From an uncultured Desulfospira sp. (lineage in GTDB: Bacteria > Desulfobacterota > Desulfobacteria > Desulfobacterales > Desulfobacteraceae): DNA of 64,000 nucleotides. Below are positions 30,790-48,860 of the stretch, in pieces. The stretch is taken from positions 928,001-992,000 of the forward strand of contig OY760175.1 in the NCBI GenBank assembly GCA_963663165.1, in the 5' to 3' direction. The translations under genes were made by a program, and so were the position numbers. The stretch's first letter is position 1. Each line of letters begins with the position of its first letter. Below the pieces are notes generated by a model. That model searched no databases. It was given only the letters and a program-made list of their open reading frames with translations, and was not told where the DNA came from.

Positions 30790-31446
30790 ATGGAAAATGT
30801 AAGTTTTAAAGATTGCGCCATTGTCGCCTGCGGCACCATGAGCCTTGAGCTCAATCATCTCAAGGGGGAAGGGTTTCTCGATACCGATCATCTGTTTTAC
30901 ACCACCCCCGGGCTTCATCAGGATATTGTTAAACTGGAATCCCAGCTGGTCAAAATGATTGAAAAGGCCAGGACAAAAGCCGGTAAGGTCATTGTGGTGT
31001 ACGGGGGAAAGTACTGCTATGTAAACCCGGACCAGCCCACAAGACTGATGAAACACCTGGTGGAAGATCAGGGCAAGGGCATAAGTCGCGTTGATGCGAC
31101 CCATTGCATGGGCATGCTGGCCAGTGACGATGACATGAAAAAAATAGCGGAAGAAATGGCCGGCGGCGAGCCGGTCTGGTTTATGACCCCCGGCTGGGTA
31201 AAATACCGGCACGAAGTGTTCAAGGGATGGGACAAGGGGGTGGCCAACGAGAACTTCCCCCGGCATACCGGCGGCGCCATTGTCCTGGACGGCATCGGGT
31301 TTATGGACCAGTACATGGCCGAAAAGCCTGAAGAATTTCTTGAGTACTGTGACTGGATGGGAATTCCCATGCAGGCCTGCCCCATTACCCTGGACCGGTT
31401 CAAGGGGCTTTTGACGGATGCGCTGTTAAAGACGGGTCAGCCATAA
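30790..31446 (+). CDS. DUF1638 domain protein
   Basis: IVACG, PGLH, VVYG..C, HCMGML, FMTPGW. Confidence 0.8.
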   Translation: MENVSFKDCAIVACGTMSLELNHLKGEGFLDTDHLFYTTPGLHQDIVKLESQLVKMIEKARTKAGKVIVVYGGKYCYVNPDQPTRLMKHLVEDQGKGISRVDATHCMGMLASDDDMKKIAEEMAGGEPVWFMTPGWVKYRHEVFKGWDKGVANENFPRHTGGAIVLDGIGFMDQYMAEKPEEFLEYCDWMGIPMQACPITLDRFKGLLTDALLKTGQP

Positions 31447-31551
31447 CGGCCCCTATCCTGTTGGCAGAAACCGGGCGGCCCTGGTTGTTCAAACCAAAGG
31501 CTGCCCTCAAAAAACCTGGCAGCCTTCAGTCTAAACCCCTTCAGCCTTTTT

Positions 31552-32265
31552 TTAGAAATAATGGGGCATGTAATCGATATCAGCCTGGTCAAATTCCTTG
31601 AACAGAAGTTTGAGCCGCTCATTGGCCGTATGGACGGCCAATGGTTTTTCATCGCTTTCCCGGGCCGTGGGATAGCAGGACAGGCAACGCTGGAACCGGC
31701 TGTTCTGCCCAAGGGCCGCAATGGTAAAGTCGGCCATCAGAAAAGTCTGTTCATTCTTTTTGGCGGCAAAATGCTCTACTGCAGGGATGATCTCCAAGCT
31801 TACGTCAATATGGACCTTATGGCCCTCTTTGGCAATATGGATATAGTCATGGATGGTCAACATCCCGCCTGTAAAAGGGTCCCGGCCAAGATCAATCTCA
31901 TCGTATTTCACCATCATTTTTTCTAAGCTGAACGAGGTGTCCGGCATTTGAATTCCCGTGTCGGCCAGCCGCTTGAAATCCCGTTTCAGATACCGGTTGG
32001 CAATCATCACGGCCTGGGAAACATGGGGACACAGGTTGTGGGGACACCCCTTTGCGTAGCATTTCCTGAAGGCATATGCCCGGCTGCCGCAAGTTCCGGA
32101 ATAATGGCACAAAAAGACAAAGGCCTGGAACGTAACATCGGCCTGGGCAAAATTGACGGGCACGATCTCAAAACCGGTCCGGCAGGTAACCGTTTCCCCC
32201 TGGTTTTTCAGTTGGATCAGATCGGTCACCCGGTTCGGTGCCGGGCTGCTGATTGCGGTTTCCAT
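31552..32265 (-). CDS. Cys-rich hypothetical protein, last gene of the Hdr-like operon
   Basis: 237 aa; RKCYAKGCPHNLCPHV and RCLSC; co-oriented with the operon. Confidence 0.7.
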   Translation of the reverse strand: METAISSPAPNRVTDLIQLKNQGETVTCRTGFEIVPVNFAQADVTFQAFVFLCHYSGTCGSRAYAFRKCYAKGCPHNLCPHVSQAVMIANRYLKRDFKRLADTGIQMPDTSFSLEKMMVKYDEIDLGRDPFTGGMLTIHDYIHIAKEGHKVHIDVSLEIIPAVEHFAAKKNEQTFLMADFTIAALGQNSRFQRCLSCYPTARESDEKPLAVHTANERLKLLFKEFDQADIDYMPHYF

Positions 32266-32285
32266 TTTTCCCCCTTTATCAAGGC

Positions 32286-32651
32286 TTAATAAACCAGTTG
32301 GGCGTCGGCTTCCAGGGCAAGCATGTTCAAGGCCCCGCCGGTGGTGACCTCTGTGCCGTCAATGAGATCTGATTCCTCAATTTTCCGGTCCTGGATACAG
32401 GGCTTGCACACCATGAGCTTTCCGCCAAGCTCCATAAAATCTGCCATGAGTTTGGTCAGAGGCGCAAAACCGCCCGTGGCCGGGACATGCTCAATATACC
32501 CTTTCTGAGCCAGGTAAACGGCGCTGCCCTGGAGGGCAACTGTGGTATCCACATCAAGGGCAATGGCGGCACAGGCCATGGCAAAACAGATGGACGCCTT
32601 TTCCGCATCATCTCCGCCATGGGTACAAAAGTAGACGATTTTTTCAGACAT
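32286..32651 (-). CDS. DsrE/DsrF-like sulfur relay protein
   Basis: THGGDDAEKA, GSAVYLA, VCKPC. Confidence 0.82.
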   Translation of the reverse strand: MSEKIVYFCTHGGDDAEKASICFAMACAAIALDVDTTVALQGSAVYLAQKGYIEHVPATGGFAPLTKLMADFMELGGKLMVCKPCIQDRKIEESDLIDGTEVTTGGALNMLALEADAQLVY

Positions 32652-32768
32652 GATTTTCTCCTTTAGATTTGTTTAGGGGTTTAGGCTGAAGGGGTTTAGA
32701 CTGAAGGAAATCGATCGCCTTTCGAGCAGCGAGACCTAACCGTCTTCAGCCTTCAGCCTATCCACCTT

Positions 32769-33695
32769 TTAAATATGTTCTACCAATAAGCTGCTCAGAT
32801 CCCGCACATCAGCCCCGGCCTTTTTAAGGTTCCCCATACAGATGGGGCACATGGCAATGATGGGCTTGCCGGGTTCTGAAAGCTCCCCTGCCCGTTTTTC
32901 CATGATCTGGCTGGAAAGCTTGGGGGAAATGGATTCGGCAGGCCCGCCGCAGCAGCTGGTGAAGTCCCGGGAATTCCGGATCCGGGTTTCCCGGATTCCC
33001 AAGCCTGCCAGCACTTTTCTGGGGATATCGGATACGCCCAGATACCGGCCGAAAAAACAAGGGTCATGCAGGGTAACCTCAAGGCCGGCATTTTTGGATT
33101 CAAGATTCAGCAGTTCAAAATAGGGAACCACCTCAAATTGAGCCCCGGTATATTTGGGAAAAAGTTCTTTTAAGGCATAGGTGGTATGGGGATCAATGGT
33201 AATAATTTTTTTGATTCCAGCCTGTTGCAGCTTTTTGGCAACTTTCCTGGCATGGGCCACAAACCCTTTCTGGTCGCCCATGTCATAAAGCAGAATCCCT
33301 GAATAATGGTCCAGATCCGGCCGGTAGCCAAAATCCACCCCGGATTGCCTGAGCAGGCGAACCACATTTTTCAAAGGAATGCCGGCCTTTGCCTTTTCCT
33401 TTGCCCGGGTCATGAGGGCCAGGCCGATTCCTGAAAAAGTGCCGGGAACATACCGGGCATATTTGAGATAATCTGCCGTCGGGGTGTCCTCATAGGTCGC
33501 AAGATACCGGGTGGATGTCTCAATATACGGGATAAACTGGTACATCAGGCCGGTATACAAAAGGTATTTCCCGTCATGGGGAAGATTTTGAGTTTTATAC
33601 CAGGTATTGACCATGAACTTAGGGATTCCAAAAGGGCTCATGGTCTGCCTTACGTTCCGGGCAAGGACCTCAATGATATCTATAGGATTGAACAT
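32769..33695 (-). CDS. CCG-domain Fe-S protein (HdrB/HdrD-like)
   Basis: HDPC, SCCGG, MCPIC. Confidence 0.8.
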   Translation of the reverse strand: MFNPIDIIEVLARNVRQTMSPFGIPKFMVNTWYKTQNLPHDGKYLLYTGLMYQFIPYIETSTRYLATYEDTPTADYLKYARYVPGTFSGIGLALMTRAKEKAKAGIPLKNVVRLLRQSGVDFGYRPDLDHYSGILLYDMGDQKGFVAHARKVAKKLQQAGIKKIITIDPHTTYALKELFPKYTGAQFEVVPYFELLNLESKNAGLEVTLHDPCFFGRYLGVSDIPRKVLAGLGIRETRIRNSRDFTSCCGGPAESISPKLSSQIMEKRAGELSEPGKPIIAMCPICMGNLKKAGADVRDLSSLLVEHI

Positions 33696-33699
33696 GATG

Positions 33700-34002
33700 T
33701 CAGGACCTCCTCTGGTAATCCACAACAAAGCGTTTGAGTCCCAGGATAATCTCGCCGGGATCGGCCTGTCTCGGACAGGTATGGGTACAAAGCCCGCAGT
33801 GCAGGCACTTCCACAGTTCATTGGCGTTTTCTAAAATGGCCTGCTTTGCCCCGATCTGGATGTACCGGATCATTCGCCTGGGAAAATTGTCGTTGACCAG
33901 GGGGCATACGGCGGCGCAGGTGCCGCAGTTAAAACATTCAAGCGCCGTATCCTGGCAATAGGGGGCCAATTCTTGGGCAAAATCCAAATCAACACTTGTC
34001 AT
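33700..34002 (-). CDS. HdrC-like 2x[4Fe-4S] protein
   Basis: CFNCGTCAAVCP; FPRRMIR; CLHCGLCTHTCP. Confidence 0.88.
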   Translation of the reverse strand: MTSVDLDFAQELAPYCQDTALECFNCGTCAAVCPLVNDNFPRRMIRYIQIGAKQAILENANELWKCLHCGLCTHTCPRQADPGEIILGLKRFVVDYQRRS

Positions 34003-34003
34003 G

Positions 34004-34339
34004 TCACACCTTCTCTTTTTCCCGGGGTTGATTATTGCCCCCGGACCCATGGGTTGTATTTAATTTGTATTTAAAAAATGATCCGTCCTTGGGCCCTTCC
34101 ACAATCTGTCCATACTTTTTAAGGGTGGCCATGTACCACAGGGTCCGGTCCGTGGGCATCCGGACCCCTTGTGAAATCTCAGGGATCGTGGCGTCACCAT
34201 TTTCAAGAAACGCCAGGATGTCCCCCATCTGTTTTTTTTGCTGCTTCATTTTGGCGGAGGCCTTCTTGATGGACTCCTTTCGCCGGGCCCTTAAGGCTTT
34301 CATGGCCTCTTTTCGGGTCTCTTTGTCTTGCTGTTCCAT
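34004..34339 (-). CDS. Small winged-helix protein
   Basis: ATIPEISQGVRM..RTLWYMATLKKYGQI. Confidence 0.7.
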   Translation of the reverse strand: MEQQDKETRKEAMKALRARRKESIKKASAKMKQQKKQMGDILAFLENGDATIPEISQGVRMPTDRTLWYMATLKKYGQIVEGPKDGSFFKYKLNTTHGSGGNNQPREKEKV

Positions 34340-34387
34340 GATATGGTTCTCCCCCTGATTTATTTTTGGGATAGCGGTGAGGCTGCC

Positions 34388-36163
34388 TTAAGCGGCTGAG
34401 ACGATGGCATCCACCATTTTTTCGTATTGTTCCAGCGCCCATCCGTTCAGATCAATGGCCTTTTCCGGACAGACCGCCACACAGGCCCCGCATCCTAAGC
34501 ACATGGCCGCGGTGACCTGAGCCTGCTTCACGGTTTGGCCCTGCCGCTGAACCTCAACCAGGTTCAGGGCACCTTCCTTGATGCAGGCATCCACGCAAGC
34601 CCCATGGCCCTGGCATTTGTCCGGATCGACCTCGGCCACAAAGGGATCCAGTTCAATCACGGCTTTGCCCAGCAGGGCACAGGCTTTGGCGGCGGCCGCG
34701 CCGGCAGCATTGCAGGCTTCGCCCGAATCCATGGGGGCCTGGCAGGTGCCGGCCAGGAACACGCCGGAAACCGGAAATTCCACGGGCCTGAGTTTGGGAT
34801 GGACTTCGAGCAGGAACCGGTCGGTCCCCACGGGCAGTTTCATGATTGAGGCCAAATTGCCAACATCGCTTGGCTCAACCCCTGCGGCCAGGACCACCAG
34901 GTCGGCCGGGACGACCATCTCCTCATTAAAGGTCAGGGAATCCGTGACCTTCACGGTCAGGGGATAAGCAGATCCGGCCGATTTTTCAACCTGGGGCGGG
35001 GCATCGGCCTCATACCGCATGAACACCACCTTGTTGGCGCTGGCCCGGTTGTAAAGGTCTTCCTGGCCCCGGCCATAAGTTCTGATATCCCGAAACATTT
35101 CATATATCTGTGTTTGGGGATAGGATTCGCGAATCTGGTTGGCCGCATTGAGCATGGCAGCGCAGCAGGTCCTTGAGCAGTACTCGTTGAGCTGCCCGTT
35201 CTCTTTGGGCTGGTGAATTCCGGGAATCTGCCGGGAGCCCACACAGTGGATCATGGCAATATTCCGGACGGGCCGCCCTTCAAATTCAAACCGGTTTCCA
35301 CCCGGGGCGCCCTGTTTGAGGGCCTCAATCAGGGTCTGGAGGGTGATGACCTGCCGGTGGGTGCCAAAACCGAACTCCCCTTCAAAGGGCTGGTAAGGCA
35401 CGGATCCCGTTGCCATGACAATGGCCCCGGTGTCGATCTTAAATGATCCGTCTTTCCCCGTAACATCCAGGGTGAAATTGCCGACATAGCCTTGGACATC
35501 CGTGACTTCACTGCCCGTGTGTACGGTAATGGCAGGCTCTGCCGTTACCTGGGCGAGCAGTTCATTGAGGATATCCGATGCCTTTTCCCCGAACGGGGCC
35601 AGCCGGCCTAAATTATTCAGGTGTCCGCCCAAGGTTTGGGTTTTTTCGATCAGTGCCGTTTCAATCCCGTTTTGGGCCATATCCAGGGCGGTCTTGAGCC
35701 CGGCAATGCCGCCGCCGATGACCACGGCATGTTTTTTCGCATCCACCCGGATGGGCTCCAGGGGTTTAAGTTTTCCGGCCTTGGCTGCGGCCGCTGAAAT
35801 CAGCACCGCGGCCTTGTCCGTAGCCGGATCACCGTGATGGACCCAGGAGACCTGCTCACGGATGTTGGCATGCTCATAAACAAACGGATTGGCCCCGGCC
35901 CGTTCAATGGCCCCCCTGAAGGTGGCCTCATGAAGGCTCGGGGCACAGGACGCCACCACTACCGAATCGATTTTCCCGGCTTTAAGATCCTCGATGATCA
36001 TTTCCTGGCCGGGATCAGAACACATGAACATATTGGTCCTGGCCACGGCCACGCCCGGTATTTTTTCAGCCCGGTTTCTGACCTCTTCCACGTCCACGTG
36101 GTCGGAGATGTTCCCCCCGCAGTAGCAGATATAGACCCCGACTTTTTGATCGTTTTCTTTCAT
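34388..36163 (-). CDS. hdrA: HdrA-like FAD/Fe-S protein (long copy)
   Basis: VYICYCGGNI, ASCAP..HE, ANIREQ, GGGIAG, CVGSR, CSRTCC, C-terminal ferredoxin. Confidence 0.88.
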   Translation of the reverse strand: MKENDQKVGVYICYCGGNISDHVDVEEVRNRAEKIPGVAVARTNMFMCSDPGQEMIIEDLKAGKIDSVVVASCAPSLHEATFRGAIERAGANPFVYEHANIREQVSWVHHGDPATDKAAVLISAAAAKAGKLKPLEPIRVDAKKHAVVIGGGIAGLKTALDMAQNGIETALIEKTQTLGGHLNNLGRLAPFGEKASDILNELLAQVTAEPAITVHTGSEVTDVQGYVGNFTLDVTGKDGSFKIDTGAIVMATGSVPYQPFEGEFGFGTHRQVITLQTLIEALKQGAPGGNRFEFEGRPVRNIAMIHCVGSRQIPGIHQPKENGQLNEYCSRTCCAAMLNAANQIRESYPQTQIYEMFRDIRTYGRGQEDLYNRASANKVVFMRYEADAPPQVEKSAGSAYPLTVKVTDSLTFNEEMVVPADLVVLAAGVEPSDVGNLASIMKLPVGTDRFLLEVHPKLRPVEFPVSGVFLAGTCQAPMDSGEACNAAGAAAAKACALLGKAVIELDPFVAEVDPDKCQGHGACVDACIKEGALNLVEVQRQGQTVKQAQVTAAMCLGCGACVAVCPEKAIDLNGWALEQYEKMVDAIVSAA

Positions 36164-36164
36164 A

Positions 36165-37454
36165 TCAGATTCTCCCGTTGGCGTTGGACATGAATTTGGC
36201 GGCTTCCATGGCGGCCGAGCCTGACTCGGTGATGGTATCCACAATGTCCTTGGGGCCGGCGGCGGCCCCGGTGGTAAACACCCCTGCCATATCCGTTAAT
36301 ACCGGAGAAATTTTAGGCTTGATGGAGGTGATGAAGTGATCCGTATCCGTTGAAACCGGACAGATGCCGGCCGGATCCCATCCGGGCACCATGCCCATGG
36401 AAAGGATGACCAGATCGTGGCTGGCCGTGTCAATGCCCGAACCGTCCTGGCGCTCGTACCGGACCGCTACGCTCCCATTTTCCCCGGGATCAATCCGGCC
36501 GACCTTGGCCTTAACAAATTCAATGCCCATGGCCTTGGCATTCTGGTAAAACTGTTCATAGCCTTTGCCAAAGGCCCGGATATCCATATAGTAAATGGTA
36601 ATATCCGCCAGGGGCAAAGAACCGGAAAGCAGCATGGCCTGCTTGATGGCATACATGCAGCAAACCCTTGAACAATAGGGAACCCCCATTTGTTTATCCC
36701 GGGAGCCCGCACACTGGACATAGGCTACCGAGTCGGGTTCCATGCCGTCTGAAGGCCGCAGCACCCGGTTGTAGGGGCCGTGAGGGGCCAGAAGCCGCTC
36801 CATCTGAAGGGAGTCAATGACATTGGGAATAAGGCCGTTCCCATAGGGAGCATTCTGTTCCTTGGGCAGCAGCTCAAACCCGGTGCTTATGACCGCCGTT
36901 CTGGCCTCAATGAGAAAATCTTCGCCCTCCTGGAGATAGTCAATGGCCTTTGTGGGACAGATCTTTTCACACTGCCCGCAGAGCATGCAGTGGTCCGGGG
37001 AAAGGACCGGCAGCTGGGGAATGGCATTGGAAAAGGGGATGGAAATGGCCTTTTTAGCGCTCAATCCCCCCTGTTCTTCGTCAGGGATATAAACCGGACA
37101 GACGTATTCGCATTTCCGGCAGCCGATGCACTTGTCCTCGTCCACATACCTGGGGTTCCGGCGAACCTTGGCCTTTACACCGGATTCGTCCCGGGTAAGG
37201 GAGGACAGGTCACAATAGGTAAACAGGGTAATATTTTCATGATGGGCGGCAGATGACATCTTCGGGGTGGTAATGCAACTGGCACAGTCCAGGGTGGGAA
37301 ACACCTTGGACAGGCGGATCATCTTGCCGCCGATGGACGCGTCTTTTTCCACAACAGCGACCTTGTATCCCTGATCGCCAAGGTCCAGGGCGGTTTGAAG
37401 CCCTGCGATGCCTGCGCCCACCACAAGGGTGTCAAATGATTGAATGGGGAGCAT
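36165..37454 (-). CDS. hdrA: HdrA-like FAD/Fe-S protein (short copy)
   Basis: GAGIAG, KVFPTLDCASC, ferredoxin insert, CAGSRD, CSRVCC, GPKDI. Confidence 0.88.
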   Translation of the reverse strand: MLPIQSFDTLVVGAGIAGLQTALDLGDQGYKVAVVEKDASIGGKMIRLSKVFPTLDCASCITTPKMSSAAHHENITLFTYCDLSSLTRDESGVKAKVRRNPRYVDEDKCIGCRKCEYVCPVYIPDEEQGGLSAKKAISIPFSNAIPQLPVLSPDHCMLCGQCEKICPTKAIDYLQEGEDFLIEARTAVISTGFELLPKEQNAPYGNGLIPNVIDSLQMERLLAPHGPYNRVLRPSDGMEPDSVAYVQCAGSRDKQMGVPYCSRVCCMYAIKQAMLLSGSLPLADITIYYMDIRAFGKGYEQFYQNAKAMGIEFVKAKVGRIDPGENGSVAVRYERQDGSGIDTASHDLVILSMGMVPGWDPAGICPVSTDTDHFITSIKPKISPVLTDMAGVFTTGAAAGPKDIVDTITESGSAAMEAAKFMSNANGRI

Positions 37455-37495
37455 GGTTCCTCCTAGTAGATGGCTTGGCCGGTTTTCCGGCCGGG

Positions 37496-37915
37496 TCAGC
37501 ATGAAAGCTGCGGCGGCCCCAGCTCACTGACCAGCTGGTTCATCTGATTAATTTCATTTAAAAACGCCCGGTTGCAGACCGTGCAGATGGCGGTCAGGCG
37601 CAGCCGTTTCAAATCCAGGTTAAGGGCCTTCATCTTCTGATAGACCGAGTTGAGCCGGGTGGCCATGGCCTTGTAGGCCCCGTCATAGGGGCACTCTTCG
37701 CCGCAGGACATCACGATAATGCCGCTGATGCCTTTTTTGAAACAGTCAATGTAAAAGGATTCCGGGAACAGGACCGGGGCCCTGACCCTTAAAATGTAGG
37801 TATTTGCCGGATAGGAAGAGTGGGCCTGGCCCACGGAATCCGCGCCCGGATATGCGCAGGTTTCCGTGGCCAGAACCAGGATCTTGTTTGCCGTTGGGGT
37901 CCCTTGGGATGACAT
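37496..37915 (-). CDS. mvhD: MvhD/FlpD-like [2Fe-2S] subunit with atypical Cys pattern
   Basis: CAYPGAD; MSCGEECPY; RLRL..ICTVC. Confidence 0.8.
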   Translation of the reverse strand: MSSQGTPTANKILVLATETCAYPGADSVGQAHSSYPANTYILRVRAPVLFPESFYIDCFKKGISGIIVMSCGEECPYDGAYKAMATRLNSVYQKMKALNLDLKRLRLTAICTVCNRAFLNEINQMNQLVSELGPPQLSC

Positions 37916-37926
37916 GGCGGCCTGCC

Positions 37927-38175
37927 TTATTTCTTCCGGGTGACAAAATGCCGGTCATACCCGTCTGCCTCAAGAAATCCCATGTATTCGTGCCCGACCT
38001 TGCCGGCCCAGGCCGGGATATCGTTCCGGGTTCCTGAATCGTTGGACAGGATTTCCAGGGTCTGGCCCACCTGGACCTTGCCGATCCCTTTTTTGGCTTC
38101 CAGAAGGGGGCCGGGGCAGGCACTGCCTCTGGCGTCAGCTGTGTTGGCCGCTTCAATTGCATTTAGATCTGTCAT
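37927..38175 (-). CDS. tusA: TusA-family sulfur carrier
   Basis: DARGSACPGP (CPxP); DIPAWA..GH. Confidence 0.9.
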   Translation of the reverse strand: MTDLNAIEAANTADARGSACPGPLLEAKKGIGKVQVGQTLEILSNDSGTRNDIPAWAGKVGHEYMGFLEADGYDRHFVTRKK

Positions 38176-38243: not shown

Positions 38244-38260
38244 AGCAAGGTCAATGCCAA
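38244..38260 (-). promoter_or_regulatory. Sigma54 promoter of the tusA-hdr operon
   Basis: TTGGCATTGACCTTGCT on the minus strand; GGTAAC/GTTACC boxes at 38367-38411. Confidence 0.8.
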
Positions 38261-38641: not shown

Positions 38642-38756
38642 AAATAGGACTTTTTTGCTAAAAATAGGACTTTTTTGCTAAAACCTGCTTACTATTTATT
38701 TTCTTTGTGAATTGTTTTGAACGACCTGTTTTGAACGACCTGTTTTGAACGACCTG
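38642..38756. repeat. Two perfect tandem repeats in the leader (20 bp x2 and 14 bp x3)
   Basis: AAATAGGACTTTTTTGCTAA x2 (38642-38681); TGTTTTGAACGACC x3 (38713-38754). Confidence 0.92.
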
Positions 38757-38916: not shown

Positions 38917-39570
38917 ATGACAACCAAGCAAGAAATTCTTTCCAAGCTCAGCGAGGCGGTCTTAAAGTTTGAAGAAGAGGACGCGCGGACCTCAGCCATT
39001 GAAGCCCTGGAAAACAACATCGACGCTGTTGAGGCCATACTGGACGGCTTTGTGGTCGGAATGAAAAAAGCCGGTGAGTTGTTCAAACGACAGGAGTACT
39101 TTGTTCCGGAAATCCTGTTGTGCGCCGACGCTATGGAAGAAGGCATGAAAATTTTGCGGCCACACATTTCTAATAACAAAGCCACAAGCTCAAAAGGAAA
39201 AATCATATTGGGGACCGTAGAGGGCGATATTCATTGTATCGGGAAAAATCTGGTCAAATTGATGCTGGATACCAACGGATTTGAGGTTTACGACCTTGGG
39301 GAAGATGTTCCTGTATCCCGATTTGTCGAGGAACAAAAACGTATTGGTGCCGATATCGTCGCTTTGTCTACCCTGATGACAACAACGATGATGGCGGTCA
39401 AAAATTCGATTCCCATTCTAAGAGAAAGCGCTCCCGAACTGGCCATCATGGTTGGTGGCGCGCCGTTTACAGATGAAATTGCAAAAAAATTCGGTGCCGA
39501 TGGATACGCTTCTGACGCAATTACTGCCGTTAATGAGGCGGAAAGGATTATGGCTGCAAAATTAAGTTGA
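38917..39570 (+). CDS. Corrinoid (B12-binding) methyl carrier protein, MtaC/MtbC-like
   Basis: GTVEGDIHCIGKNLV (DxHxxG); MVGGAP; cap domain. Confidence 0.93.
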   Translation: MTTKQEILSKLSEAVLKFEEEDARTSAIEALENNIDAVEAILDGFVVGMKKAGELFKRQEYFVPEILLCADAMEEGMKILRPHISNNKATSSKGKIILGTVEGDIHCIGKNLVKLMLDTNGFEVYDLGEDVPVSRFVEEQKRIGADIVALSTLMTTTMMAVKNSIPILRESAPELAIMVGGAPFTDEIAKKFGADGYASDAITAVNEAERIMAAKLS

Positions 39571-40592
39571 TAAATGTCCTTAAGAAATCCCCACCTCTGG
39601 AGCAGAATATGAATGAATTGGCGCAATTTATCACCGGCCTTGGCAGGGTTCCCATTGTCCCGCTGATTGGATTCCCGGGTATCCAGCTCAACAAAAAAAC
39701 GGTCAAGGAAGCCCTTTTCGATCCCAAAGTACAGATAGAAGCACTTTTGGCCCTTAACGAACAAGTTCGCCCGGACGCCCTGTTTGCCATGATGGACCTG
39801 ACCGTTGAGGCAGAACACCTTGGATGCCCTTTAAAATTCTCAGAGAATGACCCACCGGCTGTGGCAGACGGTTTATTCGATGATCGCGCAGACAATGACA
39901 CCATTTCCCGGGTTTTCAAAGACAGAACTGCCGGAGGCAGAATGCATCTTTTTGCCGAGGTGGTCTCCGGCTTGAGTGATGTGCTTGATATCCCGGTGGC
40001 CGCGTACGTGATCGGACCTTTGACCCTGGCCGGGGAGATCATGGGCATTTCCCGCGTCATGAAATCAACACGAAAAAATCCTGCCGTGCTCCATCAGGTT
40101 CTTTCAAATACAACTGAGTTAATCATGAATTATATTAATTTACTGGAAAGTGCGGGAGCACGGATCATATGCATACTCGAACCTAGTGCCATGATGATTT
40201 CCCCCACTCTTTTCAATGAATTTTCCGGACGGTACTGTAAAAAAATCGTCTCAGAAAGCATCACAGTGATGAGCGTTTTGCATATTTGCGGGGACACAAA
40301 TCATTTGATACCGGAAATGGAAAAAGTCGGTGCCGACGGCCTCAGCCTGGACAAACAGGTGGACCTGCCCAAAGCATATGACACCTTACATTCCCAAACG
40401 GTGTTGATCGGCAATATCGATCCTGTTTCCATCATCACCTTTGAAGATGCCGATACCGTTAAAAAGAAAAGCACACAGTTGATTCAAGCAATGAAAGGTA
40501 AACCCAATTTCATTCTGAGTACGGGGTGCGATGTCCCCCCCAACGCCCCCATTGAAAACCTTAAGGCCATGATGCAATCCAATGGTTTCTGA
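39567..40592 (+). CDS. URO-D-fold MT2 methyltransferase (MtaA/CmuA-like)
   Basis: DLTVEAEHLG, GPLTLA, LHICG, GNIDP, STGCD. Confidence 0.87.
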   Translation: MINVLKKSPPLEQNMNELAQFITGLGRVPIVPLIGFPGIQLNKKTVKEALFDPKVQIEALLALNEQVRPDALFAMMDLTVEAEHLGCPLKFSENDPPAVADGLFDDRADNDTISRVFKDRTAGGRMHLFAEVVSGLSDVLDIPVAAYVIGPLTLAGEIMGISRVMKSTRKNPAVLHQVLSNTTELIMNYINLLESAGARIICILEPSAMMISPTLFNEFSGRYCKKIVSESITVMSVLHICGDTNHLIPEMEKVGADGLSLDKQVDLPKAYDTLHSQTVLIGNIDPVSIITFEDADTVKKKSTQLIQAMKGKPNFILSTGCDVPPNAPIENLKAMMQSNGF

Positions 40593-40653
40593 AAAAAATC
40601 CAGAAGCCAAACAATAGTAAGCTTAATTTATTAATCATTTGAAAGGAGCCACA

Positions 40654-41685
40654 ATGAAAATTACTGTCATTTGCAAACGTTCACTTTCTTTGCTGATCAT
40701 GATTTCGGTCGTCATGTTGACATGGACAACCGGATCCTATGCCAAAACAATCAAGCTTAACTATAGTTGGTTTGCGCCAAATTCGGAAGCCCACTACCAG
40801 GTGGTTCAATACTTTATCAAGGAAATTGAAGAACGGACTCAGGGGCGTGTCAAAATAACATACTTTCCAGCCGGGTCCCTTGTGGGCGGCCCCCAGGCGT
40901 ATGACGCCGTCTCAAAAGGGATTTCCGATATTGATTTTCCGGTCATGGCATATACGCCGGCCCGTTTTCCGGTTTGCTTTGCCTGGGACCTGCCTTTGGG
41001 AATCAAATCATCTGCTGCAGCGACCCAAATGATGATCGAGTCCTATGAAAAATTTAAACCCAAAGAACTGGATGGTGTCAAAATTCTCTATCTTTGGGGA
41101 TCTCCGCCTTGCCAGCTTCAAGTCAAAAAAGAAATGAACAGCATGACAGATATTGTTGGCCGGAAAATCAGATGCACCGGCATTACGGCGGAATTTATCC
41201 GGGCGCTTGGCGGCACCCCCGTGTCACTGCCCATGTCCGGCGCCTATGAATCATTGCAAAAAGGGGTGGTTGAGGGCACCATCAACTCAACCAACGCACT
41301 GAAAGTCTTCAAGCTTGGCGAACTGCTCGACTATGAATACGAAATAAACGCCTTAACCGTCCCTTTTATTTGTGTAATGAATCAAAAGAAATGGCAGTCG
41401 CTTCCGGCTGATATCCAAAAAATCATCAGCGAGGTAAGCCAGGAATGTATTCCTCTGGAAACCAAAGTCTGGAATGAGTCAGTTCATGAAGGCCGCATGT
41501 TTGGGGAGGAAAAAGGCATGCAGTTTATTAAGGCGACACCGGAAATGTTTAAGGAAATAGAGACGGTACAACCGGTTTTGTATCAAAACTACCTGGATAA
41601 TCTAAAGAAACTCGGGCTTGAAAAAGAGGGGAAAGCCTTTCTGGATTACTTAATTGCCTTTTCAAAAAGTGACAAGAATAAGTAG
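40654..41685 (+). CDS. dctP: TRAP substrate-binding protein
   Basis: Signal peptide; GRKIR; YESLQKGVVEG. Confidence 0.9.
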   Translation: MKITVICKRSLSLLIMISVVMLTWTTGSYAKTIKLNYSWFAPNSEAHYQVVQYFIKEIEERTQGRVKITYFPAGSLVGGPQAYDAVSKGISDIDFPVMAYTPARFPVCFAWDLPLGIKSSAAATQMMIESYEKFKPKELDGVKILYLWGSPPCQLQVKKEMNSMTDIVGRKIRCTGITAEFIRALGGTPVSLPMSGAYESLQKGVVEGTINSTNALKVFKLGELLDYEYEINALTVPFICVMNQKKWQSLPADIQKIISEVSQECIPLETKVWNESVHEGRMFGEEKGMQFIKATPEMFKEIETVQPVLYQNYLDNLKKLGLEKEGKAFLDYLIAFSKSDKNK

Positions 41686-41699
41686 GACAACATAACATA

Positions 41700-42200
41700 A
41701 TGATAACGAGAATGAAAAACGGTATTGTCTGGGTAAGCGGACGCTTAAACGCCGTTGCGGGTGTTATCGTAATCGCACTGATGGTGCTGACCACCAGCGA
41801 TGTGTTTTTGAGATATCTGTTTAACTGCCCTGTAAGAGGGACTTATGATGTTTCCGGGCTTATGGCGCTGGTGATCATCAGTCTTGCCCTGGCACAAACC
41901 CAATTGAAAAGAGGGCATATCAGCATTACGATCCTCCTGACCGTCCTGCCAAAGAAAATCGAGATACTGGTACAGGCCGCCATTGATTTTATCTGTCTTC
42001 TGGCGTCCATTGGTGTCGCCTGGCAAAGCTGGATCTACGCCATTTCTCTGGCTTCGGTCGGAGAAGCTTCCCAGACGGAAAAAATTCCTTTTGCCCCATT
42101 TGTTTACACGATTAGCGCCGGCTTTATTGTCCTGAGTCTTGTTTTGCTTATCAGCGTTGTTGAATCCATAAACAAGGAATTTAAAAATGAGTCCAATTGA
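41700..42200 (+). CDS. dctQ: TRAP small permease
   Basis: DVFLRYLFN.PV.G; GHISI. Confidence 0.9.
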   Translation: MITRMKNGIVWVSGRLNAVAGVIVIALMVLTTSDVFLRYLFNCPVRGTYDVSGLMALVIISLALAQTQLKRGHISITILLTVLPKKIEILVQAAIDFICLLASIGVAWQSWIYAISLASVGEASQTEKIPFAPFVYTISAGFIVLSLVLLISVVESINKEFKNESN

Positions 42201-43485
42201 AACAGGCATTGTTGGGTTGATATCACTGGTCATCGCGATTCTGGTCGGATTCCCGGTTGCATTTGCCATGTTGATTATCGGTTTTTTGGGGTTCAGCGCA
42301 CTGGTTTCAATGGATGCCGGATTAAACATTGTCTCACAGGATATATTCAGTGTGTTTTCATCCTATTCATTGACAGTGGTCCCCATGTTCGTATTAATGG
42401 GGTCCATCGCATTTTCAGCCGGGACCAGCAGCCGGCTTTTCAATGTTGCCAATAATTTTTTCGGCCATCTTAAAGGAGGGCTGGCCATGGCCACCATTGG
42501 CACCTGTGCTGCATTTGCCGCCATGTGCGGGTCTGCCAATGCCGCTACGGCAGCATTGGGTAAAGTCGCCATACCGGAAATGGAGAAATATAATTATTCT
42601 TCCATCCTTTCCACCGGATGCGTTGCCTCCGGCGGAACATTGGGGGTTCTTATCCCGCCGAGTACGGTATTTATCATCTATGGCATATTAACGGGCGAAT
42701 CCATTGGCAAGCTGTTTATTTCCGGCATTATCCCCGGCCTTCTGTTAACCCTGTTGTTTGTCGTAACCATATATATTCTCTGTAAGGCCAATCCAGTCCT
42801 CGGACCTGCGGGTGAACGCATCAGCTGGTCAAATAGAATTAAATCCCTCAGTGGTGTTATTGAAATGCTGATGTTATTTATTCTGGTCATGGGGGGGATA
42901 TTTACGGGTGTTTTCACGCCCACGGAAGCGGGCGGCGTTGGGGCTTCGGGCACCATTGTTATCGGATTGATTGGCCGCAATTTAAGCTGGAAAATGATGA
43001 AAATAGCCGTTACAGACACGGTCAATATTACCTGTATGCTGTTTTTTATCATTGCGGGTGCCACCGTTTTCGGGCATTTCATTGCGGTGACGCAAATCCC
43101 CATTGCCCTGGTAAACTGGCTTTCTGATTTGACCGTCAGCCCTCAGATTATTTTAGGGCTTATTATTGCCATCTACTTTGTCGGCGGATGTTTTATTGAC
43201 ATTCTGCCTCTAATCCTATTAACCGTTCCTATTTTTGCACCGATTATCCAATCCTTAAATTACAGCCTCATCTGGTTTGGTGTAATTATCGTTCTGATTG
43301 CCCAGATCGGTGCCATCACTCCCCCGGTCGGCGTATGCGTTTACGTACTCAAAGGGGTGTGCCCGTCCGTTCCTTTGACCGTGATTTTTAAAGGATGCCT
43401 GCCTTTTGTCATCACTATTTTGATTTGCGTTTTAATATTGTTGCTCTTTCCGTCAATCGTCACTTTTTTACCGGACCTGATGTGA
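42187..43485 (+). CDS. dctM: TRAP large permease
   Basis: VPMFVLMG, LGVLIPPS, TPTEAG, ITPPVG. Confidence 0.93.
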   Translation: MSPIETGIVGLISLVIAILVGFPVAFAMLIIGFLGFSALVSMDAGLNIVSQDIFSVFSSYSLTVVPMFVLMGSIAFSAGTSSRLFNVANNFFGHLKGGLAMATIGTCAAFAAMCGSANAATAALGKVAIPEMEKYNYSSILSTGCVASGGTLGVLIPPSTVFIIYGILTGESIGKLFISGIIPGLLLTLLFVVTIYILCKANPVLGPAGERISWSNRIKSLSGVIEMLMLFILVMGGIFTGVFTPTEAGGVGASGTIVIGLIGRNLSWKMMKIAVTDTVNITCMLFFIIAGATVFGHFIAVTQIPIALVNWLSDLTVSPQIILGLIIAIYFVGGCFIDILPLILLTVPIFAPIIQSLNYSLIWFGVIIVLIAQIGAITPPVGVCVYVLKGVCPSVPLTVIFKGCLPFVITILICVLILLLFPSIVTFLPDLM

Positions 43486-43512
43486 CCCATTATCTTAACT
43501 TAAGGGATTATT

Positions 43513-44586
43513 ATGGAAATTAATTTAAAAAAAGATCAGATGACCCTGCATGAAAGATGGACTGCTCTTTTAAACCGGCAACCGATGGATCGCATCCCGG
43601 TGTATGCGTTTGCCCATGGGTTTTGTGGAAAACATGCCGGACTCACCCTTGCCGATACCTATAGTTCTCCACAAAAAACATTTAATGCCATTAAAAATGT
43701 CAGTGAGAAATTTGGATGGCAGGATCTGCCGCTGATCGCTTATGCCGGATTAGGCGCATGGGAGTTCGGCGGTGAGGTCCAAATGCCGCAAAGTCAATAT
43801 GATCAGGCCCCGAAAGTGATCAGACGGCCGGTTACAAAACCCGAAGATATTGAATTATTAACCGTTCCCGATGTCCATAACGCCGGAATCTATCCGTTTG
43901 CCATGGAAGTTTCCAAACTTCAGGCGCAAAGCGGGACAGGGCTGATCATGTTCATGATTCCAACCCCCTGGGCACTTGCCTGCAATATTTGCGGAATGGA
44001 AAATATTGCCCGGTGGTCATTAAAGGCGCCGGATCTGGTAGACAGGGTTCAAGAAATCATCCTGCCCTTTACCGGTAAAATCTTAGAATACTGGATTGAT
44101 GCATTTGGAACCGATCGCCTTCTGCCCTGGGTGAGCGGGGGGGCCGCATCAAATAACAGCCTCATTTCCCCCAAAATATTTTCCAGATTTGTCCTGCCCT
44201 ACATGCAAAAAACCTTTGACGCGGTTCACCGGTCCGGTATTAAGCATATTTATGTTCACGTCTGCGGTGAACATAATTTGAACTTGCCTTATTGGGCGCA
44301 ACTGAATTATGGTGACCCAGGGATTTTAAGTTTTGGGATTGAAGTTGATCTGAACACTGCGGGTAAAATGTTTCCCAATGATATTATCATGGGCAATATT
44401 GATACGGCCATTTTGGCCGAAGGGACACCCGAGCAGGTATACGAAGCAACGAAAATGACCATTGAGAAAGGGAAACAGTGTCCGGGAGGATTTATGCTGG
44501 CGCCAGGCTGTGAAATGCCTCCCATGGCCCCTGAAGAAAACATGTGGGCAATGATGCAGGCCGTGAGTGACTTTGGCTGGTATTAG
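43513..44586 (+). CDS. Second URO-D-fold MT2 methyltransferase
   Basis: DRIPV, HVCGE, GNID, LAPGCEMP. Confidence 0.87.
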   Translation: MEINLKKDQMTLHERWTALLNRQPMDRIPVYAFAHGFCGKHAGLTLADTYSSPQKTFNAIKNVSEKFGWQDLPLIAYAGLGAWEFGGEVQMPQSQYDQAPKVIRRPVTKPEDIELLTVPDVHNAGIYPFAMEVSKLQAQSGTGLIMFMIPTPWALACNICGMENIARWSLKAPDLVDRVQEIILPFTGKILEYWIDAFGTDRLLPWVSGGAASNNSLISPKIFSRFVLPYMQKTFDAVHRSGIKHIYVHVCGEHNLNLPYWAQLNYGDPGILSFGIEVDLNTAGKMFPNDIIMGNIDTAILAEGTPEQVYEATKMTIEKGKQCPGGFMLAPGCEMPPMAPEENMWAMMQAVSDFGWY

Positions 44587-44619
44587 GGAATCGGAACCGG
44601 ACCTAAAAAAACCTGCCGT

Positions 44620-45471
44620 ATGGAAAAAGACAATTTGAGCCTTGCCGAATCTATTGGTATTAATGTCCGAAAGTTAAGAAAAAAAAGCAATTATACCCTG
44701 AAGAATCTTTCTGATAAAACAGGGCTTTCCATTGCGTTGCTTTCAAGAATTGAGAATGGGCAGCTCAGCCCGTCCGTTAATACACTCGATAAAATCGCCA
44801 ATGCGCTGGGGATTGAAATATCTCATATCCTTCAAGAAGAGCTGTCACCGGATCAGCTGGGGTTGGAAATTTCAGAAAAAATTAAAAAACGCATGAAAAT
44901 TTTTGGAATTTCCATAGTTGAACTATCAGAAAAAAGTGAAATCCCAGAGACCATGCTGAAGCGGTTTTTAAAAAATGAAATATTTTTATCCATCCCCAAT
45001 TTTATGCGGCTGGCCAATATCCTGAAAGTTGATTTAAGCTACTTTTTCCAAAACTCACCCAATAAAAACTTTGTGATCAGCCGAAAAGACAACCGGACTT
45101 TAAATGAATGGATGGGGAAAAAAGGAAAACCCAATTATTTGGTTGAAATACTATTTGAAGATTTCCCCAACCAGGTAATGGAACCGGTTATTTCCACACA
45201 TGTTGCCAAAGAAGATTTCCTCATTAAAGCCAGCCACGCAGGCCAGGAATTTTTTTATGTGCTGGAAGGAAAGGTCAAATTGTTCCTGGACGATCATAAA
45301 ATCATTCTAAATCAAGGGGATGCCATTTACTTTGACTCCCATCTGCCCCATGCGGCGGTAAGCATCAGTGATGCGCCCGCAAAAACCATTCATACCCATT
45401 TTGCGCCCTATTCGAGGTTAAAAACAGGGGCTTTGCCTCAAAAAGGAATCGATAAACCCCAAAAGGTCTGA
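44620..45471 (+). CDS. XRE regulator with two HTH domains and a cupin domain
   Basis: LSIALLSRIENG..PS HTH; second HTH; HAGQEFFYVLEG..GDAIYFDS.LPH. Confidence 0.88.
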   Translation: MEKDNLSLAESIGINVRKLRKKSNYTLKNLSDKTGLSIALLSRIENGQLSPSVNTLDKIANALGIEISHILQEELSPDQLGLEISEKIKKRMKIFGISIVELSEKSEIPETMLKRFLKNEIFLSIPNFMRLANILKVDLSYFFQNSPNKNFVISRKDNRTLNEWMGKKGKPNYLVEILFEDFPNQVMEPVISTHVAKEDFLIKASHAGQEFFYVLEGKVKLFLDDHKIILNQGDAIYFDSHLPHAAVSISDAPAKTIHTHFAPYSRLKTGALPQKGIDKPQKV

Positions 45472-45903: not shown

Positions 45904-46908
45904 ATGCGAAAGAAAGACAGGACAGGGGTCAGCCGAAGGGCGTTTTTAAAAGGGGTAGCCGCCGGGGGCGCCTGCATGATGTTGCCCGGAACGGTGAAAG
46001 CGGCGCAACAGGGTAAGGTACTGGCTACCCTGCATGATCTGTCTCGGTGTATTGGCTGCGGGGAATGTGTGTCTGCCTGTACCGCACAGAATGAAGCCAA
46101 GTATCCGGAACCCCAAAAACCCTTTCCCAGGATGTATCCTGACCGGGTCAAGGTGGCGGACTGGTCGGATAAGCGTGATATGGACGACCGGCTCACCCCT
46201 TACAACTGGCTGACCATCCAGAGCGTTGAGGTTGAATGGCAGGGGGAATCCTATGAAATCCATATCCCCCGGCGCTGCATGCACTGCGAAAATCCCCCCT
46301 GTGCCAACCTGTGTCCCTGGGGGGCCTGTGCCCGGGAGGACAATGGTGTGGTGCGCATCAATTCGGATATCTGCCTGGGCGGTTCCAAGTGCCGGTCGGT
46401 CTGCCCCTGGGATATTCCCCAGCGCCAGACAGGTGTGGGCCTTTATCTTAAACTCATGCCGGCTTTTGCCGGCAACGGGGTCATGTATAAATGTGATCGC
46501 TGTTTTGATCTGTTGAGCCAGGGCGGTGTACCGGCCTGTATCAGTGAGTGCCCCGAAGAGGTCCAGTTCATCGGCCCCCGAGATGAGATCCTGGCCCGGG
46601 CCCACGAGCTGGCCAGATCCTTTGCCGGCAGCGGCAATGAAACCGATTTCATTTATGGGGAATTTGAAAACGGTGGCACCAACACTATATATGTTTCGCC
46701 GGTCCCCATTGAGGTGCTGGCCAAGGCCCTTGAGGCCGGGCCGGGAAATCCCCATATGAACCCGGTTGAGGATATGATGGCCAAAGATGAAATTTTTGGC
46801 ATGGCCGCCCTGACCGCGCCATTGGCCGGCGTGGCCGCCGGGGTGCTCACGGCTGGGGCAGGACTGCTCAAATTAGGCGGGAAGGATAAGGAGGAGACCC
46901 ATGAATAG
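45904..46908 (+). CDS. Tat-exported multi-[4Fe-4S] protein (DmsB/HybA/FdnH-like) with C-terminal anchor
   Basis: SRRAFLK; CIGCGECVSAC, CMHCENPPCANLCP, CLGGSKCRSVCP, KCDRC..PACISECP. Confidence 0.87.
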   Translation: MRKKDRTGVSRRAFLKGVAAGGACMMLPGTVKAAQQGKVLATLHDLSRCIGCGECVSACTAQNEAKYPEPQKPFPRMYPDRVKVADWSDKRDMDDRLTPYNWLTIQSVEVEWQGESYEIHIPRRCMHCENPPCANLCPWGACAREDNGVVRINSDICLGGSKCRSVCPWDIPQRQTGVGLYLKLMPAFAGNGVMYKCDRCFDLLSQGGVPACISECPEEVQFIGPRDEILARAHELARSFAGSGNETDFIYGEFENGGTNTIYVSPVPIEVLAKALEAGPGNPHMNPVEDMMAKDEIFGMAALTAPLAGVAAGVLTAGAGLLKLGGKDKEETHE

Positions 46909-47468: not shown

Positions 47469-48860
47469 TTACCCCTGCAACGGAATATCCCATTTTTTCA
47501 TATATTTCCAGACAGCGGTCCGGCTCTTGTTGATCTGCCGGGCCACTTCGGCTTTGTTCCAGCGGCACTCTTCGAGCAGCTGGATGAGGCTCTCCCGGGT
47601 GATTTCCCGGTTGGAAAAATCCGTGGTCAGCCGGGGTCCCATTTGAGGCGAGGCCTTTACCATATGGCTTTCCCGGATTTCAATGGGAAGATCTTTTAAC
47701 TGGATCTGATGGGATTCACACAGGACAAAGGCATGCTCGACGGCGTTTTCAAGTTCCCGGACATTCCCGGGCCAGGGGTGTTCCATGATCTTTTTCATGG
47801 CCTGGGAGCTGAGGCTGGATATATGTTTGCCTTCTCTTTTATTTCCCTTGTCCAGAAAGTGGCTGACCAGCAGGGGAATGTCATCCCTTCTTTCCCGCAG
47901 GGGCGGCACATGGACCGGGAAAACCTTGAGCCGGTAGAACAGGTCCTCACGGAACTGCCCCTCCCGGACCATGCGGTAAAGGTCTTTGTGGGTGGCGGCA
48001 ATGATCCGGATGTCAATTTTGATTTTTTTTGAATCCCCTACCCTCTCGATCTCCCTTTCCTGGAGAACCCTAAGCAGCTTGACCTGCATGTAAGGGGTGA
48101 GTTCTCCGATCTCGTCCAGGAAAATGGTGCCCTGGTCCGCTTCCTCGAACCGGCCTTTCCTGTCCCTGTGGGCCCCGGTGAACGCCCCTTTGACATGGCC
48201 GAACAGCTCACTTTCCAGCAAGGTTTCGGACAGGGCTGAACAGTTGACCGTGATCAGGGGTTTTTCCCCGCCGGGACCGTTGTAATGGATGGCCCCGGCC
48301 ACCAGTTCTTTGCCCGTGCCGCTTTCCCCGTAAATAAGGATGTTGGCCTGGCTGTTGGCCGCCGCCCTGATGGCGTCAAACACGTTTTGCATGGCCGTGC
48401 TTTTTCCGATGATATTGCCCAGCCGATAGGCTTTTTTAAGCTTTCTTTGGGCCTCTTCGGCGGTCTGCCGGACCTTCTTGAGCTCTGTCAGGTCCGTGAC
48501 GGTCTCAACAATACCGAGAACCCGGCCCTCCTCATCCTTTGCCAGCCGGGCGTTTTTTATCACAGGGATGTCATGGCCGTCTTTATGGCGGATAAAGCAT
48601 TCTTTGGTTTCGGTCCTGCCATGTTCAATCACCCCGCATTTTTGAATGTCGGCCGGGCAGTTCCGGCCAAAACAGCGGCTGCACTCAATGAGGCGGCACG
48701 TCTTGCCGATGGCTTCCTGTGCGCCGTATCCGCTAATTTTTTCCATGGACCGGTTCCAGGACGTGATGATCCCTTTGGGATCCAGAATGAAAAGTCCTTC
48801 AGCCATGGTGTCGAGAATTTGATTTAAAAAAGAGACATTCCAGATGTCATGGGTTTTCAT
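47469..48860 (-). CDS. Sigma54 enhancer-binding protein with Cys-rich PAS domain (OrpR-like)
   Basis: PAS with [43 protein letters not shown]; Fis-type HTH. Confidence 0.92.

Follow-up and report, generated by a model that had tools for sequence, protein, structure and literature searches.

What reaction is carried out by an HdrA-type flavoprotein pair whose genes stand in one operon with those of two sulfur-handling proteins, TusA and DsrE? This question is raised by a locus in an uncultured Desulfospira sp. (assembly GCA_963663165.1, contig OY760175.1), within a 64,000-nucleotide stretch at positions 928,001 to 992,000 that is called the window here. Nine open reading frames (ORFs), all on the minus strand and separated by gaps of 1-117 bp, follow the order tusA, mvhD, hdrA, hdrA, winged-helix gene, hdrC, CCG gene, dsrE and Cys-rich ORF. 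This order had been proposed in an earlier reading of the letters alone (the sequence-only reading), and ORF positions and family scans agree with it. The same reading listed no hydrogenase, Fdh, Flx, Apr or lipoate-binding gene, which is true among the nine by family scans; the rest of the window was checked for such genes by reading ORF starts and by a Pfam scan of eight ORFs. The operon is a real, conserved and uncharacterised variant of the HdrA module, with parts from known families. These parts match the BamDEF core of class II benzoyl-CoA reductase, split into separate genes. The distinctive part of the operon, as seen in alignments, is an altered MvhD (MvhD*) with an invariant CxxC and with tusA always upstream. 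With a probability that we put just short of even, the complex may couple electron-transfer flavoprotein (ETF) or menaquinone and ferredoxin, at the first HdrA, to thiol/persulfide chemistry on TusA or DsrE via MvhD*.

The two hdrA genes had been read as two copies. They are complementary halves, HdrA1 and HdrA2. HdrA1 aligns to residues 146-567 of methanogen HdrA, has the inserted 2x[4Fe-4S] ferredoxin and lacks the N- and C-terminal domains, and HdrA2 has the N-terminal cluster domain, the FAD domain and the C-terminal ferredoxin and lacks the inserted one. The four domains of a full-length HdrA are thus divided over the two proteins, which score far below the NCBIfam cut-offs (best model for both NF040770, 455 and 476 bits against a cut-off of 1100). 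Lys409 of HdrA (5ODC numbering), which contacts N5 of the FAD (PMC6405883), corresponds to K271 in HdrA1 and N339 in HdrA2. HdrA1 also retains the pair C57/C60, residues C248/C261/C265/C266 of the [4Fe-4S] cluster adjoining the FAD, and E219. The last is the equivalent of Glu356, which we take to have a role in bifurcating HdrA. The lysine, the glutamate and the C57/C60 pair are found in 18/18 HdrA1 rows; the lysine and the Cys pair are lost in 18/18 HdrA2 rows, with the glutamate kept in 4 of them. HdrA1 thus combines the lysine, the glutamate and the adjacent cluster of HdrA-type bifurcating flavoproteins, and HdrA2 lacks the lysine. These residues support the earlier proposal of a flavin-based complex, and make bifurcation probable.

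A phylogeny of the HdrA proteins had been suggested as a check, and its comparison with Qmo was carried out. In a FastTree of 50 FAD domains, bacterial and archaeal HdrA1 group together (support 1.0), as do the HdrA2 proteins (0.97), and both clades stand apart from QmoA/QmoB of the same genome (0.995). The tree holds few references: type I Qmo is represented by the genome's own QmoA/QmoB, and no named type II sequence is included. Four fused tandem-HdrA genes (~1010-1030 aa; G000:C1:427772-430837, 3151605-3154655, 3881088-3884117 and 6546965-6550018) in the same genome show the same asymmetry between first and second half, and each is followed by a canonical mvhD. Two of them have an in-frame TGA. 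Other redox genes follow (labels partly from ORF starts), in one locus metV-metF, and in one locus the last gene is DsrC-like, judged by the start of its ORF. In an archaeal genome (G540, L188:629-7950), genes for a QmoC-like protein, HdrA1-like and HdrA2-like proteins, a canonical MvhD and two hydrogenase-like proteins stand together; here a hydrogenase and a membrane subunit go with an asymmetric HdrA pair. No tusA match was found in this L188 locus.

MvhD docks the input module in other HdrA complexes, and thiol chemistry beside its cluster has been proposed (bioRxiv 10.64898/2026.04.10.717634). The canonical MvhD of the same genome has cysteines at positions 13, 16, 42, 67 and 72. Aligned to the MvhD of 5ODC, MvhD* lacks the Cys13 and Cys42 positions and has a new C111-x-x-C114. 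This CxxC is present in 34/34 aligned rows, the canonical Cys42 position is absent in 34/34, and each of the retained canonical cysteines is missing in one row. The CxxC occurs in 117/119 close homologues and the canonical VxCS in none, and some distant homologues retain the CxxC only. TusA carriers are marked by the N-terminal CPxP cysteine, and Cys20 of TusA is present in 34/34 aligned orthologues. Both CxxC cysteines of DsrE are found in 46/46 sequences. One DsrE orthologue has an in-frame TGA at the first of these cysteines, probably read as selenocysteine, which would fit a redox role. A predicted complex of MvhD*, TusA and a [2Fe-2S] cluster scored 0.04 (mark 0.32), which speaks neither for nor against binding. 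Longer proteins were also searched for, and among the best 8000 candidates scored four matched, none with a TusA domain. Tandem dsrE pairs are present in loci L006, L007, L012, L014-L018 and L020. In L025 (1395-2919), dsrE is followed by a gene for a membrane protein, which presumably resembles YeeE/YedE, and by a second tusA; the membrane gene is also present in L023.

The suggested synteny survey was run on two sets of loci. With the CCG protein as query, 44 loci were obtained, most of them from Desulfobacterales. All eight genes from tusA to dsrE stand in order in 25/44, and 18 of these 25 also have the Cys-rich ORF (2 partial). The remaining loci are cut by contig ends, save L043, where the operon is a different one, and L044, whose copy is fragmented; in L044 (7316-8532, Desulfobacter) a heavily deleted remnant holds bits of tusA, hdrA1, hdrC, the CCG gene and dsrE within 1.2 kb. 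The second set was built by an MvhD search, against the bias toward the CCG variant. Thirty of 400 other Desulfobacterota genomes match; 29 loci were fetched and one hit lay at a contig end, and four of the 29 apparently come from genomes already in the first set. A sample from one archaeal phylum gave weak matches in 9/251 genomes, and four of the six fetched loci have the same operon. The core tusA-mvhD-hdrA1-hdrA2 is intact in all 29 Desulfobacterota loci and in the four archaeal ones.

The module downstream of this core is swapped. Among the 29 loci it consists of HdrC and the CCG protein (CCG*) in 13, of a QmoC-like protein in 9, and of dsrE followed by a fused HdrD-like protein in 5; two loci are cut. 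The QmoC-like proteins are 375-400-aa membrane proteins, and the two of nine that were scanned scored 184-190 bits with the QmoC model, under its cut-off of 300. Three archaeal operons have a QmoC-like gene (one cut) and one an HdrD-like gene, with tusA upstream in 4/4. Gene content, conserved residues and module swapping are direct observations. The link to sulfur that had been proposed from the carriers is borne out in the survey, as tusA adjoins mvhD in every uncut locus, dsrE is present in 25/27 uncut loci of the second set, and the operon is enriched in dsrA-positive genomes (28/204, versus 2/196 dsrA-negative, among the 400 Desulfobacterota, in which related genomes are not independent). 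Among the best 80 of 524 metagenome loci, which are close relatives, tusA stands ahead of mvhD in 77, and the remaining three begin no more than 30 bases from mvhD. Carriers with dsrA number 33/35 and those with aprA 31/35. The operon is accessory even among sulfite reducers. Cultured carriers are Desulfobacter curvatus, D. vibrioformis, Desulfospira joergensenii, Desulfosarcina widdelii and Desulfacinum spp.

The sequence-only reading implied that HdrC and the CCG protein are the site where a disulfide or persulfide is cleaved, and this is not supported by the cysteine pattern, the fold and the swapping. The eight cysteines of the HdrC-like protein are conserved in 43/43. HdrB has two intact CCG motifs, and in CCG* cluster cysteines are found in the C-terminal motif only (C213, C248, C249, C283 and C286; invariant in 32/32). 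The first motif reads D-P-H-T, with D-P-H170 in 32/32. The predicted model (pLDDT 91) has its best fold match in EtfD (Z 25.6, rmsd 2.2, 255 aligned), followed by LutA (Z 19.6) and HdrB (Z 17.5), and H170 aligns with EtfD His583. In EtfD this histidine renders the cluster non-catalytic according to the authors, and FadF and DgcB lack the first cluster (PMC13083937). In BamD, which binds ETF, one cluster is of the five-Cys-one-His type and the second is damaged (bioRxiv 10.64898/2026.04.10.717634). The closest other CCG protein in the genome, a membrane protein of 687 aa that shares the D-P-H motif and the cysteine set, is encoded directly before etfB-etfA. An archaeal homologue (43%) has a GlcD-type FAD oxidase on one side and two LUD-domain genes on the other, an arrangement like the A. 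fulgidus lactate dehydrogenase cluster (PMC3949148). The HdrD-like replacements also carry S-P-H-C. The His-capped single cluster, the EtfD fold, the ETF-linked cysteine pattern and the swapping in relatives suggest that CCG* is probably a relay and not a disulfide reductase. No hydrophobic stretch above 1.75 was detected in a crude scan of the window operon for a membrane QmoC.

Taken together, the operon would encode a soluble three-port HdrA-type bifurcating or confurcating enzyme, like BamDEF with BamE and BamD each split in two; this architecture is well supported. HdrA1 and HdrA2 would form an asymmetric dimer with a single working FAD, in HdrA1. At the high-potential port, the HdrC-CCG* relay would connect to ETF or another flavoenzyme, and in relatives a QmoC-like subunit would connect to menaquinone. 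Ferredoxin would serve as the low-potential port, by way of the ferredoxin domain inserted in HdrA1. The mid-potential two-electron port would be MvhD*, where a hydrogenase or NADH module docks in other complexes. As no input module is encoded, the CxxC of MvhD* may exchange electrons with sulfur on TusA and/or DsrE. In the slightly preferred direction, confurcation, reduced ETF or menaquinol together with reduced ferredoxin would reduce protein-bound sulfane sulfur, which would make the enzyme an inducible means of disposing of polysulfide or sulfur. The reverse, oxidation of a thiol or sulfide giving reduced ferredoxin, appears about as plausible. Potentials are given as -74 mV for menaquinone and about -450 mV for ferredoxin, and as +16 mV for ETF (bioRxiv 10.64898/2026.04.10.717634). 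The mean of the ferredoxin potential with that of menaquinone or ETF is -262 to -217 mV. The sulfur/polysulfide potential is about -260 to -270 mV, near this mean, so that either direction would be feasible. Subunit assembly, ETF as the partner, TusA at MvhD*, the substrate and the direction are proposed here from sequence features and by analogy. A mid-potential couple formed by sulfur on a small carrier protein, balanced against ferredoxin and ETF or menaquinone, would be a new class of bifurcation, an idea that we offer as doubtful; equally tentative is its detailed form, in which an MvhD put to a new use, sitting on the mobile HdrA arm and bearing a thioredoxin-like CxxC, reduces or forms the persulfide of TusA or DsrE.

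Several points weigh against this coupling of ETF or menaquinone and ferredoxin to carrier sulfur. The genes etfAB are not among the nine, and no search for etfAB beside the operon was made; ETF as the partner therefore rests on likeness. The CxxC of MvhD* may simply be relocated [2Fe-2S] ligands. A complete genome (G052, 100%) carries the operon without dsrA or aprA, and its locus gave no dsrE. A comparably placed histidine is present in DsrK, which is presumably catalytic and acts on DsrC, and the histidine of CCG* may allow catalysis. Moreover, MvhD* could dock a C1 enzyme instead, since one tandem-HdrA locus of the same genome has a canonical MvhD followed by MetV-MetF, and metV and metF follow the operon in 11/44 and 12/44 close relatives.

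This last point leads to an alternative that we consider rather unlikely, in which the bifurcating core is kept and MvhD* docks an enzyme whose genes lie downstream or at another place (MetVF, Flx or Fdh), most likely for methyl/C1 oxidation. TusA and DsrE would then be accessory, in sulfur supply for cluster assembly or in thiol protection. The metVF neighbours just named, the tandem-HdrA locus, and the DUF1638 and corrinoid/methyltransferase genes that flank the operon in the window fit this alternative. However, metVF are found in 0/29 phylum-wide loci within the fetched stretch, and are absent from the window operon, and maturation factors would leave the co-occurrence of the MvhD CxxC with tusA from bacteria to archaea unexplained. 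Next, and unlikely, CCG* could itself be catalytic, cleaving a persulfide or small disulfide on its single non-cubane cluster as in DsrK, with HdrA fed from an unknown donor at MvhD*. The invariant cluster cysteines, the HdrB match, the position of dsrE directly after the CCG gene, and the sHdr clusters of sulfur oxidisers, in which Hdr genes are paired with TusA and DsrE, speak for it; the QmoC-like subunit that stands in place of any CCG protein in 9/27 uncut bacterial and 3/4 archaeal loci, with TusA kept, and the closer likeness of CCG* to EtfD and to the genome's ETF-linked protein than to HdrB speak against it. Finally, a second (type II) Qmo that acts, in special conditions, as electron donor for APS reductase or DsrC/DsrAB is quite improbable: orthologues of the pair were scored HdrA-QmoB by DiSCo and type II Qmo occurs in sulfate reducers (PMC10504309), Ammonifex KC4 shows QmoA, QmoB, one skipped accession and QmoC, and most carriers have aprA, but no apr gene is in the operon, canonical aprA and qmoABC lie 2.5 Mb away in the same genome, both flavoproteins branch apart from its QmoA/QmoB, and G052 has the operon with neither aprA nor dsrA.

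Table 1 Features of the operon and its surroundings in the window.
Feature	Positions	Strand	Description	Basis
tusA	37927..38175	-	sulfur carrier, 82 aa, active-site CPGP (Cys20)	PF01206
MvhD*	37496..37915	-	atypical MvhD adaptor, 139 aa	FlpD/MvhD PF02662
HdrA1	36165..37454	-	429 aa, probable bifurcating half	family models and PDB alignment
HdrA2	34388..36163	-	591 aa, putative non-bifurcating half	family models and PDB alignment
Winged-helix protein	34004..34339	-	111 aa, conserved KYG motif	alignment; atlas neighbours
HdrC/QmoC-N-like protein	33700..34002	-	2x[4Fe-4S] protein, 100 aa	QmoC N-terminus model, 74 bits
CCG*	32769..33695	-	308 aa, EtfD/LldE-type	CCG PF02754
DsrE-family protein	32286..32651	-	121 aa, C82-x-x-C85	PF02635
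Cys-rich protein	31552..32265	-	237 aa, without family, optional member	Pfam and NCBIfam scans
Sigma54 (-24/-12) promoter site	38244..38259	-	one mismatch to consensus	69 bp before tusA start
PAS and sigma54 activator	47469..48860	-	Cys-rich PAS insert	Pfam; best genome match to relatives' activators
DUF1638 gene	30790..31446	+	convergent, outside the transcription unit	PF07796

Two members of the operon were examined for their possible roles. The winged-helix protein gives only a weak repressor-type family match (E 0.0017) and has ArsR-like atlas neighbours (0.96). Its gene is found mid-operon in 27/27 uncut bacterial and 4/4 archaeal loci, and its KYG motif is conserved. A persulfide-sensing ArsR repressor was considered and ruled out, as the protein has no cysteine. 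In BamF a winged-helix motif is a structural interface (bioRxiv 10.64898/2026.04.10.717634), and on this analogy a structural subunit is plausible. The Cys-rich ORF is an optional member of the gene list, whose order otherwise stood; it is present in 6/29 loci of the second set. The predicted model (pLDDT 83) shows two similar three-strand-plus-helix halves with 27% identity to each other, and the protein has the residues C69/C74/C79/H81 and C194/C197. It gives no Pfam or NCBIfam family and no Foldseek match at E 0.001; the best VIA match has Z 5.4, and a weak atlas lead points to a cluster with 20% SWIM members (score 0.76). No Pfam domain was found in the best 120 of 1101 homologues. A zinc finger is a guess. 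The Cys-rich ORF frequently stands ahead of metV, and repeated Cys-rich ORFs are present in L040 and in two metagenome loci.

The operon had been placed under one sigma54 promoter, and the site ahead of tusA agrees with this. Within the window the pattern alone is near chance (7 matches versus a mean of 3.1). Across 56 tusA upstream regions, which include a few same-genome duplicates, a site with at most one mismatch is conserved in 27, versus 0.3% of shuffles. Matches to sigma70 promoters and terminators are at chance level. The unit had been limited to the nine genes, which all stand; a sigma54 activator beyond them probably belongs to it as well. This PAS-sigma54 activator is probably the cognate regulator, displaced 9.3 kb upstream of tusA. 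It is the best match in the genome (55-79%, near full length) to the activators that precede tusA in L003 (79%), L006, L009, L012 and L022, and the partial activators of L010 and L018 also match it best; activators of other loci match a paralogue elsewhere in the genome better. The Cys-rich PAS insert is common to operon-adjacent activators in relatives and is possibly an Fe-S or thiol sensor.

The surrounding genes were also recorded. Between tusA and the probable activator lies a lower-GC block (38917-45471, plus strand, ~45-47%) with genes for a B12-binding protein, two URO-D/MtaA-family methyltransferases, an XRE-cupin regulator and a TRAP-type transporter (the TRAP label by reading ORFs). 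In gene content it looks like an inserted methyl-substrate uptake unit. A 4Fe-4S dicluster protein and a small hydrophobic partner (45904-47368, plus strand) adjoin the activator, and clusters of their homologues are near the operon in 7/45 and 3/45 loci. A small SCO4226-like gene (49968-50282, minus strand, PF14026) is also upstream of the activator in L009, L012 and L022. The DUF1638 gene is a recurrent neighbour, beside the operon in 3/44 and 3/29 loci. In the intergenic region upstream of the promoter there are a perfect 20-bp tandem duplication (38642-38681) and a 14-bp unit repeated three times (38713-38756). Related imperfect inverted repeats lie after the last gene (31487-31557) and between the CCG gene and dsrE (32675-32768). 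Their cores of 13 and 11 bases have 43 and 191 copies in the genome versus ~0.2 and 3 expected with equal base frequencies, and because these counts are far above expectation the repeats are probably a REP-like dispersed element.

Energy coupling by HdrA modules is widespread in anaerobes, and for most of the copies in sulfate reducers the substrate is not known. If the proposed coupling is true, the operon would provide a Dsr-independent, reversible route between sulfide and zero-valent sulfur in sulfate reducers from bacteria to Archaeoglobus-like archaea. It bears on the open question of how sulfate reducers and disproportionators handle polysulfide and elemental sulfur in the cytoplasm, and cultured strains carry it as a small, soluble form that has a promoter and a sensor of its own. 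The altered MvhD and the module swapping lead to a specific, testable claim on the site of sulfur chemistry, and the question becomes sharp: is it at the MvhD CxxC or at the CCG cluster? An answer would also assign a role to the 'HdrA-QmoB' pairs, for which none was given in 2023. The operon is also a caution against annotating such loci as heterodisulfide reductase.

HdrABC-MvhD, Qmo, Flx-Hdr and sHdr complexes had been stated to have different compositions. In the literature searched no complex with this gene order is characterised, but the flavoprotein pair is already listed as 'HdrA-QmoB'. The literature searched holds no description of the operon and its TusA link; subscription journals and most supplements were outside the search, and a prior mention is possible. 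Hdr loci described in the available parts of reports on D. multivorans, Db. autotrophicum, S. fumaroxidans, D. phosphitoxidans, D. dismutans, D. thermophilus and ANME partners are other arrangements. Type II Qmo is closer to HdrA, occurs with or without Dsr/Apr and is of unclear function (Neukirchen 2023, PMC10504309). Table S1 of that paper pairs WP_020586817.1 (HdrA) with WP_020586818.1 (QmoB) of D. curvatus, and these two are orthologues of HdrA1 and HdrA2 with 85-88% identity. Its 'HdrA-QmoB' pairs, which include the D. curvatus and D. vibrioformis orthologues, resemble HdrA and not type I Qmo, and the passages available from it do not mention TusA, the altered MvhD, the winged-helix protein or DsrE in this context. 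Unlike type II QmoABC, the window variant has HdrC and CCG* instead of QmoC. It differs from type I QmoABC in that the flavoproteins fall in separate clades, aprA is far away and the crude scan shows no membrane QmoC.

The sHdr-LbpA system of sulfur oxidisers shares the clustering of Hdr-like genes with TusA and DsrE. Its order is hdrC1B1A-hyp-hdrC2B2, with one short HdrA, two HdrBC pairs, lipoate-binding proteins and no MvhD, and the operon agrees with neither this order nor this content. The 349-aa chain 6TJR, which we take to be sHdrA, is the weakest HdrA-family PDB match of HdrA1 and HdrA2. Flx-Hdr and MetFV-HdrABC-MvhD of sulfate reducers and acetogens share HdrA-family flavoproteins, but flxABCD and metVF are absent from the window operon, which also lacks a two-cluster HdrB. 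Methanogen HdrABC-MvhAGD (PDB 5ODC, 8RVU, 7BKB) shares the HdrA domains, the Lys409/Glu356 equivalents in HdrA1, and homologues of MvhD and HdrC; the operon differs in a heterodimer in place of a homodimer, one CCG cluster in place of two, the lack of a hydrogenase and the altered MvhD cysteines. The ETF:menaquinone oxidoreductases EtfD, FadF and DgcB, and LutA/LldE, have a soluble part like HdrC and CCG* in fold and in the His-capped single cluster (PMC13083937), but HdrC and CCG* lack a membrane or haem domain and are attached to HdrA.

BamDEF, of the class II benzoyl-CoA reductase of Geobacter metallireducens, is among the closest known systems. Unlike BamDEF, the operon has split genes, an MvhD with a new CxxC, a separate winged-helix gene, and TusA and DsrE; no BamGHI input or BamBC tungsten enzyme is among the nine genes, so the likeness to Bam is one of working principle only. 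BamE is a fused HdrA dimer with Lys280 and Cys59/62 in its first half and a second FAD that is non-bifurcating or structural (bioRxiv 10.64898/2026.04.10.717634). The features shared with BamDEF are the asymmetric HdrA pair, one bifurcating FAD, the first-half Cys pair, an HdrBC/D-like subunit in which one cluster is His-capped and the second is damaged, the MvhD adaptor and the winged-helix motif found in BamF.

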